DNA of 64,000 bases, taken from the NCBI RefSeq assembly GCF_056712565.1, contig NZ_CM160072.1. The stretch is one strand, 5' to 3'. Shown here one piece after another: positions 56,846 through 57,325 of the stretch; positions within the stretch are counted from its first letter, which is position 1; the number at the start of each line of letters is the position of its first letter. A program made the translations under genes and the position numbers. A model generated the notes under the pieces. It was given only the letters and a program-made list of their open reading frames with translations. It ran no database searches and had not been told where the DNA came from.

Positions 56846-57325
56846 CTTATTATCCTGCATTGTTAAAAACGGCAGAATCCTATGTGACAACAATTAAACG
56901 ATAGTTAAATGGATTGATGAAAATTAAAACTACACAGGTGGGCTCAGACTATTGGAGGAAGTTGGGGACACTCAGAATCCTGTGGAATGAAATAAACCGG
57001 TCTATCCGTCCATTACCCTTTTAGCTGCGCTGTATCGTCGCCGTATTCCCGCATTAACCATGACCGTAGCCCGACGGGGAATTCCTTCTGCGTGAGTGTG
57101 CGGGAATAATTAAAAACGATGCACACCGGGTTTTTACCGCGTTAATGATTCGCGGGTTTATCCCGGTGCGATGGTGGAAGAAACAGGAAGCTGTATTACA
57201 GAAAGTGCTACTACTGTATCCCGATGCGATGTATGTAATGTGAGTCAGATAATGGCACAGGATGTGGTGATGTGGCAGTCTGGAACACAGGATATATTGT
57301 CAGAATAAGACCCGTAGGAATAAAA

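Follow-up and report, generated by a model that had tools for sequence, protein, structure and literature searches.

The late region of a phage-21-like prophage, at 55-61 kb of the 64,000-nt stretch of contig NZ_CM160072.1 (assembly GCF_056712565.1) that was analysed in whole and is here called the window, harbours a conserved non-coding element of 167 nt between bor and the gene of a lipoprotein with a TonB C-terminal domain (TonB-C). The element is probably (at about 0.55) a selected RNA structure of the late strand, namely a folded domain of the Q-antiterminated late (pR′) transcript, as judged from the base pairs that covary among its homologues in lambdoid phages; its position, its conservation, its base-pairing pattern and its strand preference were directly observed. 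On the 64-kb window, the covariance model of the element (R1) scored 181 bits (E value 1e-53), with no second significant match.

A sequence-only reading of the window had reported a 'structured non-coding segment' with two inverted repeats at this place. Both repeats were found by repeat search and are parts of one element that measures about 170-185 nt across homologues, and the description is borne out by a conserved position in hundreds of lambdoid phages and by covarying stems. Repeat 1 has the perfect 10-bp arms described, yet its spacer is 45 nt instead of about 37, and the two repeats, reported as nested, are in fact adjacent. Two alignments were used: A3, a MAFFT alignment of 27 non-redundant variants, and A4, a model-fitted alignment of 33 distinct copies. 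The parts of the window copy are as follows (columns are those of A3).

57025-57191, + strand: the whole conserved element, 167 nt, the sole copy in the window (covariance model).
57044-57053 and 57099-57108: arms of repeat 1, TATTCCCGCA / TGCGGGAATA, complementary at 10 of 10 positions.
57124-57141 and 57151-57168: arms of repeat 2 as drawn in the sequence-only reading, CACCGGGTTTTTACCGCG / CGCGGGTTTATCCCGGTG, complementary at 13 of 18 positions around a 9-nt loop.
57031-57038, + strand: 5′ arm of helix P1, UGUAUCGU, pairing with 57116-57123 (columns 7-14 with 93-100).
57116-57123, + strand: 3′ arm of P1, ACGAUGCA, within the most conserved block AAUAAUYAAWAACGAUGCAYACCGGG.
57044-57054, + strand: 5′ arm of P2a, that is, the left arm of repeat 1 plus one U·G pair (columns 20-30 with 75-85).
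57098-57108, + strand: 3′ arm of P2a, the right arm of repeat 1.
57065-57069, + strand: 5′ arm of P2b, CCGUA(G) (columns 41-45 with 65-69).
57088-57092, + strand: 3′ arm of P2b, CUGCG.
57071-57079, + strand: P2c, an apical mini-hairpin, CC-GACGG-GG (columns 47-48 with 55-56).
57128-57164, + strand: hairpin P3, with outer stem GGG (57128-30) / CCC (57162-64) and inner stem CCGCG (57137-41) / CGCGG (57151-55).
57164-57165, + strand: junction of a 17-nt deletion relative to most homologues, a TCATGCTCGCCAGTCC-type block being missing (A3 and A4).
57163-57187, + strand: weakened remnant of P5, CCGGU (57163-67) / ACAGG (57183-87), with a central G·A mismatch.
57176-57183, + strand: invariant purine block GGAAGAAA, the P5 loop and loop 3 of a putative pseudoknot (invariant A3 columns).

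The structure is strongly maintained among the homologues. In A3, 94.9% of the cells are paired and 19 pairs show double-sided changes, a level reached by none of 500 shuffles, while slid controls were 30-61% paired. In A4, 96.5% of the cells are paired and 20 of the 41 pairs are compensatory. P1, P2a and P5 were independently predicted by RNAalifold, as were P2b, P2c and P3 with RIBOSUM scoring; a further RNAalifold helix, between a 5′ GCG and columns 151-153, was proposed and left out of the pair counts. Moreover, new compensatory versions of several helices were found in the divergent copies L166, L197, L198 and L214 and in the metagenomic copy L244.

P2a, P2b and P2c together form one long hairpin (P2), of which repeat 1 is the basal stem. 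Compensatory changes are present in six of the 11 pairs of P2a (UA to CG, CG to AU or UA, GC to AU and CG to GC), and P2b has AU to UA in three sequences and CG to UA in one, with one further pair alternating between U·G and C-G (16:11). P2c is 98% paired and varies little. For P1, 97% of the cells are paired, but its arms are nearly invariant and covariation is thus uninformative; an alternative P1 register was indistinguishable from the one used, as these columns barely vary. The inner stem of P3, which is the inner part of repeat 2, shows double changes in four of its five pairs and closes a loop variable in both length and sequence, while the outer stem is compatible throughout and has one compensatory version (GCG/CGC, in L244).

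Repeat 2 as drawn, an 18-nt imperfect repeat, is in contrast not a conserved structure. Double changes are absent from its outer stem (columns 101-106 with 158-163), where the pair 104-160 is broken in 13 of the 27 variants. The long repeat of the window exists because the 17-nt deletion juxtaposes CCC and GGTG, and the full 7 bp of the outer stem are found only in the phage-21-type deletion variant; in other phages the CCGGUG block that forms the right arm of repeat 2 pairs with a downstream ACCGG instead. The deletion removes the 5′ arm of a putative helix, P4, together with the two outermost pairs of the 5′ arm of P5, and the same variant is present in L015, L063 and about 1500 Escherichia coli records at 99% identity or more. 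A 15-nt direct repeat (TATCCCGGTGCGATG / TATCCCGATGCGATG; 57159-57173 and 57217-57231; 14 of 15 positions matching, 58 nt apart) was also noticed, the first copy of which straddles this phage-21-specific junction; it looks like the footprint of an illegitimate recombination that joined the TonB-C moron (accessory-gene) cassette to the element.

At the 3′ domain, P5 is strongly and P4 moderately supported by covariation. Six of the seven P5 pairs are compensatory in homologues, in four versions (CCGGU/ACCGG, CCUGU/ACAGG, CUCGAU/AUCGAG and UUCAGC/GCUGAG), and the P5 of the window is a mixed pair of arms from different versions. P4 (CUCGC/GCGGG) is 89% paired with two compensatory pairs, is absent from the window copy and is poor in lambda-type copies. 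As modelled, P4 may interlock with P5 as an H-type pseudoknot, though RNAalifold offers another partner for the P4 5′ arm, namely the 5′ end of the element. Two loci from IMG/VR (L094 and L109) keep the 5′ domain and the start of P3 and continue from GGGTTA on with unrelated sequence; they are natural truncations at the 3′ domain.

The comparison with other lambdoid phages that the sequence-only reading had called for revealed the region at the same position in hundreds of them. A sensitive BLAST search with window 57000-57180 matched 432 phage records, mostly at 80-90% identity, including lambda, HK629 and HK630, 434, many phages carrying Shiga toxin (Stx1 or Stx2) and Salmonella phages. Homologues of the element proper, about 75-85% identical, are found in lambda, 434, Stx phages, Salmonella ES18-like phages and the DLP12 prophage of K-12, all of them past the lysis cassette and ahead of cos/terminase. 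The edges of the element are constant across phages, whereas the flanks on both sides are unalignable between types and diverge immediately past the 3′ block GGAAGAAA. Three further copies were placed by the covariance model:

Lambda, 46867-47035: between bor and lambdap78.
K-12 DLP12, L216 2509-2678 = NC_000913.3 579008-579177: a lambda-type copy between borD and ybcV.
Sakai prophage Sp12: 9 nt past the Rz stop codon.

Of 5426 complete E. coli genomes, 3079 contain at least one copy by megablast, and a single genome may contain as many as six; none of these matches carries an RNA annotation over the element, and no feature is annotated at the position of the K-12 DLP12 copy. Of the 4585 matching places, 37 are plasmid-borne, presumably as phage-derived iss/bor regions of ColV-type plasmids. 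Divergent copies were found in Salmonella ES18, SPN3UB and S135, in Intestinirhabdus, on three IMG/VR contigs and on one metagenome contig; the last, L244, was the only new divergent copy from the metagenome pattern scan. A pattern scan of genome contigs was too permissive, about 60 of its 67 matches being chance. E. coli-type copies also occur on short contigs labelled Pseudomonas yangonensis (L141), Thiomicrorhabdus (L143), a soil Proteobacteria metagenome-assembled genome (L135) and Collinsella (L159), which are most likely contamination or mis-binned coliphage DNA.

Several observations favour the late-transcript (+) strand. Over the whole structure, G·U cells number 122 and A·C cells 24; pairing is 94.9% on the + strand versus 86.2% on the − strand; and RNAalifold gives −80.1 versus −66.9. 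P2a alone shows about equal numbers of G·U and A·C events, with no strand preference. In a survey of gene context at 157 loci, the element was oriented as Rz in all 157, and this fixed orientation argues for the late strand. So does the arrangement in Sakai Sp12, where the strong terminator of an opposite-strand moron abuts the element and halts transcription before reaching it. In K-12, Adams et al. 2021 (PMC7815308 supplementary file 2) list a Rho-dependent 3′ region of a + strand transcript at position 579345; the site lies some 165 nt past the DLP12 element, antisense to ybcV, and a transcript that passes the element on this strand again favours the late strand. Lambda-type copies, and only these, also hold a + strand sigma-70-like match, CTGACA-17-TATGAT (10 of 12; L216 2656-2684), with its −35 in the 3′ domain of the element and its −10 just past it, which would read antisense into ybcV/lambdap78.

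A number of points weigh against a selected late-strand RNA. The invariance of P1 and of several loops means that part of the conservation could reflect something besides pairing. The A·C mismatches (24 cells in 14 pairs) are non-negligible and the structure was defined on the + strand, so the assignment of the late-transcript strand as the acting strand is suggestive only. Lambda-type copies fit P3 and P4 poorly, the very common phage-21-type copy is devoid of P4 and its P5 is mismatched, and mismatched P5 arms are also seen in the recombinant copies L014 and L102, as in the window itself; the 3′ domain is, because of the poor fit of the phage-21-type and lambda-type copies, either dispensable or mis-modelled. 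The K-12 Term-seq data list no 3′ end at the element, the late genes being silent there (PMC7815308). Finally, the element is absent from HK97, HK022 and phi80, and is thus an optional module that is unnecessary for lambdoid late expression in general.

If the element acts as RNA, its mechanism, which we infer from position and shape, could tentatively be that of a cis-acting processing or stability boundary of the late mRNA. The element occupies the long untranslated part of the late operon that separates the lysis cassette (S-R-Rz/Rz1) from cos/terminase, with moron slots on either side, and would fold into a closing stem (P1), a three-segment hairpin (P2), a hairpin with a variable tip (P3) and a 3′ hairpin (P5) perhaps interlocked with P4. 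Such a compact domain, either exonuclease-resistant or nuclease-targeted, would separate the messages of the lysis cassette and of the packaging genes: it would either keep exonucleases off the 3′ end of the lysis-gene message or, through its cleavage, leave the packaging-gene message with a structured 5′ end. Late expression would thereby be insulated from the morons that insert around the element. This proposal fits the long untranslated stretch and the size of P2, which with 11 + 5 + 2-3 bp and internal loops amounts to the about two turns of irregular duplex RNA that an RNase III substrate requires; it also fits phi80, where a putative rightward terminator hairpin, possibly an analogue of the element, is annotated at the equivalent place after Rz.

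The element seems to be an RNA motif of lambdoid phages that has so far gone undescribed. The covariance-model search of Rfam that had been suggested for the segment returned no known family: cmscan against Rfam 15 with E values up to 10, run on the window region, five homologous loci and the 434 copy, gave only noise of at most 11 bits over the element. ARAGORN found no transfer RNA or transfer-messenger RNA gene in window 54000-59000. On neither strand of 57025-57191 did the scan find an intrinsic terminator (a GC-rich hairpin with a U tract within 0-2 nt); the U5 run at 57131-57135 has no hairpin end before it, and no promoter-like site was found on the + strand of the window copy. Nor is there a conserved open reading frame (ORF): each frame is closed in at least one variant, 1-nt indels are found within the element, and the ATG at 57060 is GAG in many variants. 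The 67-aa ORF that the annotation of one Stx phage places across the element is unconserved, and the 45-aa ORF of phage 21 is doubtful, as its start ATG lies in the conserved 3′ block GCGATGGTGGAAG and is unconserved in other variants. Resemblance to boxB/nut or to a terminase R-site was rejected by eye, since the loop sequences differ and the element accompanies unrelated terminases. A full-text literature search found the element undescribed, including in Tree 2014, Adams 2021, Owen 2020, Piya 2023 and the work on the svsR and Pas small RNAs (sRNAs).

The same structural and conservation evidence would suit a non-coding RNA that is cut from the abundant late transcript and acts in trans on, or sequesters, host or phage factors. 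For example, Hfq could be bound via conserved single-stranded A-R-N runs (AAUAAUCAAAAAC, GGAAGAAAC) and the GGGUUUUU run, or a host defence could be countered. The invariant unpaired segments resemble binding sites, and the element is independent of its neighbouring genes and, like accessory functions, optional among lambdoid phages. Nevertheless, we consider a trans-acting RNA doubtful: the element has neither promoter nor terminator of its own, no complementary target was identified, and none of the 63 Hfq-CRAC (cross-linking and analysis of cDNA) peaks listed by Tree et al. 2014 (PMC4104026) overlaps it, Sakai Sp12 included, these being data from uninduced lysogens in which the late operon is silent. 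A stand-alone sRNA gene, one of the functions raised by the sequence-only reading, is further contradicted by an upstream flank (where a promoter should lie) that differs between variants. Of similarly low probability is a broader form of this idea, in which the element would be an undescribed class of phage RNA, about 180 nt long and possibly pseudoknotted, that is released from the late transcript and has an activity of its own (self-cleavage, sequestering of a host RNA-binding protein like Hfq, or countering of a defence system) instead of serving as a passive stabiliser.

The Hfq-CRAC peak nearest to the element is EcOnc10, 157 nt away on the opposite strand. It is a very abundant peak that maps to the 3′ end of ECs_2255, the ylcI/DUF3950-like moron of Sp12, which lies on the anti-late strand and whose strong intrinsic terminator abuts the element (L261 1240-1430 = NC_002695.2 2234239-2234429). 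EcOnc11 (Sp10) and EcOnc12 (Sp9) are likely repeats of EcOnc10, judging from nearly identical peak scores (area under the curve), and all three look like a 3′-untranslated-region-derived Hfq-bound RNA. Identity of the element with EcOnc10/11/12 was rejected, as these belong to the 3′ end of the ylcI-like moron and the other strand, and so was identity with EcOnc04, which maps between Q and S, to the 5′ end of ECs_2189.

A role at the level of DNA is unlikely. The element would in that case be a linker between exchangeable modules that homologous recombination keeps alike, its palindromes being kept by hairpin-templated (quasipalindrome) mutation; template-switch correction of quasipalindromes is established in E. 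coli. As in a lambdoid module boundary, the element is a conserved non-coding island with mosaic breakpoints exactly at both of its edges, and joints also occur inside it: homology to lambda and 434 breaks at window position ~57134, several combinations of 5′ and 3′ parts and hybrid P5 arms occur, and the sequence of L094 and L109 becomes unrelated from the P3 region on. The wobble types, moreover, are not exclusively G·U. However, a linker requires identity, not structure, whereas copies only 75-85% identical have kept 96% pairing, with 20 compensatory pairs spread over five or more separate helices, even where the arms lie 45 nt apart. G·U cells are five times as frequent as A·C cells, which is not expected from correction of DNA, and the invariant unpaired blocks would be left unexplained.

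Further possibilities depend on the neighbouring genes. The gap between bor and the lipoprotein gene is 100% identical to phage 21 by sequence comparison, and, as the sequence-only reading had stated, its approximately 480 nt, from the bor start at 56845 (− strand) to the lipoprotein start at 57326, contain no independent ORF of 60 aa or more. The features of the region outside the fold are:

55350: pinholin.
55565: SAR (signal-arrest-release) endolysin.
56047/56279: Rz/Rz1.
56552-56845, − strand: bor, the upstream neighbour of the element and outside it (phage 21 annotation).
57171-57308: the 45-aa ORF, hypothetical protein CPT_21_72 in the phage 21 annotation.
57326-57652, + strand: TonB-C lipoprotein gene, the downstream neighbour and outside the element (ORF list and phage 21 annotation).
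58386: cosQ.
58604: Nu1-like gene.
59082: large terminase.

Among the 157 loci, the distance from the Rz stop to the element ranges from 13 to about 1400 nt (9 nt in Sakai Sp12), the interval being filled by bor, by other morons or by nothing. Downstream neighbours vary as well: ybcV (−), DUF3950 (−), lambdap78 (−), TonB-C (+), Nu1, a 933W-type terS or cosQ, the last only 35 nt past the end of the element in L014, L059 and L102. The element is thus a conserved island between two moron slots in an untranslated stretch of the late operon, and it is unlinked to bor or to the lipoprotein gene. In the window, the element lies about 1195 nt upstream of an intact phage-21 cos site (58386-58430), which consists of cosQ GGGTCCT (58386-58392) and then cosN (…CAGGTTACG / GGGCGGCGACCTCGCGG).

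A function on the opposite strand, either as regulatory or promoter region of bor or as 3′ untranslated region or terminator of the leftward morons (ybcV, ylcI/DUF3950 and lambdap78), is improbable. It could draw on a minus-strand sigma-70-like promoter annotated inside P2 in HK629 and HK630, on the stop codons of lambdap78 and ybcV only 5-7 nt from the element in lambda and K-12, and on a minus-strand terminator-like hairpin in lambda-type copies. But the promoter match is lost in the window variant upon direct reading of the sequence, the hairpin is limited to lambda-type copies and unconserved, and the scan of the window copy found no terminator. At 89 of the 157 loci bor is not a neighbour of the element, and at many all downstream genes are on the + strand; the leftward moron of Sp12 ends at its own strong terminator ahead of the element; and pairing is poorer on the − strand. 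Furthermore, PhoP-box-like direct repeats (CATTTAACTATCGTTTAATTGTTGTCAC; window ~56885-56912, − strand) precede the bor start codon by about 40-65 nt, a position that would agree with the control by Mg2+/PhoP that has been reported for borD. The element was therefore rejected as bor promoter: these repeats put that promoter within ~65 nt of the ATG, outside the element, and the HK629 promoter is unconserved.

The sequence-only reading had itself proposed local regulation of the TonB-C lipoprotein gene by an attenuator, an sRNA or a protein-binding site. The element indeed contains hairpins and lies about 135 nt upstream of that gene, yet the gene follows it in only nine of the 157 loci, and homology to other phages spans the element and not the gene. 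Because the downstream genes differ between phages, the same element elsewhere preceding unrelated genes or cosQ, it is not a regulator of the lipoprotein gene. Attenuation in particular fails for want of a conserved leader ORF and of a hairpin with a U tract, and with no leader peptide, terminator or conserved promoter this explanation is left highly improbable.

The repeats on their own are only modestly unusual: a perfect inverted repeat of at least 10 bp occurred in 8 of 300 dinucleotide shuffles of the gap and a 13/18 inverted repeat in 19 of 300, while the z-scores from single-sequence folding were −2.3 (+ strand) and −1.9 (− strand). These values would allow for chance inverted repeats in decaying, functionless non-coding DNA, but this is the least credible explanation and already contradicted, because the feature stands above chance through its conservation across lambda, 21, 434, Stx and Salmonella phages despite unrelated flanks, and through covariation far above the shuffled and slid controls.

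A folded domain of the late transcript, if true, would be of some consequence. Lambda is the best-studied phage and its late operon is regarded as fully mapped; a conserved, covarying RNA structure at lambda 46867-47035 would add a functional part that has escaped notice in this model system, and K-12 and the Shiga-toxin phages have the same structure. It would give direct access to the question of how a late transcript of 26 kb is divided between the lysis genes and the morphogenesis genes, it may show how this transcript tolerates the insertion of morons on both sides, and it would form a new Rfam family with which thousands of prophages could be annotated. An RNA with its own activity would be a class encoded in lambda, in K-12 (DLP12) and in more than half of the complete E. 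coli genomes. Should the element prove to be only a recombination linker, it would clearly exemplify the boundary sequences that the model of modular phage evolution postulates.

Among known systems, the anti-sRNAs/EcOnc RNAs of prophages in enterohaemorrhagic E. coli (Tree et al. 2014, PMC4104026) resemble the element, itself probably an RNA, in being non-coding and in their location, as both occupy conserved sites of moron insertion in the same lambdoid prophages. The anti-sRNAs, however, are 51-60 nt long and come from genes between Q and S, each antisense to the late operon and equipped with its own promoter and terminator (PMC4104026). Stabilisers or terminator-like hairpins at the end of the lysis cassette, such as that of phi80, share the position after Rz/Rz1; they and the element alike are read through by the Q-modified polymerase and are possible barriers to 3′ exonucleases. 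Instead of being a plain GC hairpin that ends in a U tract, the element is about 180 nt long, multi-helical and conserved in sequence.

The intercistronic R sites of T7 and the sib site of lambda are hairpins for RNase III processing and retroregulation, which set cut sites and message stability. Like the element, they are long, irregular, internally looped hairpins in untranslated spacers of long phage transcripts, and P2 is comparable to them in size. The element shows no similarity to them by sequence or by model and adds P1, P3, P5, a possible pseudoknot and long invariant single-stranded blocks; its cleavage, unlike theirs, is hypothetical. The put antitermination RNAs of HK022, a phage without N, are located just downstream of the early promoters and act on RNA polymerase. 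They are cis-acting folded RNAs of a lambdoid phage, with paired stem-loops in an operon transcript, as the element would be, while the element belongs to the late operon of Q-bearing phages and has neither similarity to put nor any Rfam hit. Lastly, the boundary or linker sequences of lambdoid phages are, like the element, conserved non-coding islands at junctions of module exchange; they are short and, to our knowledge, have no covarying secondary structure, whereas covariation is what distinguishes the element and what a linker role would leave unexplained.

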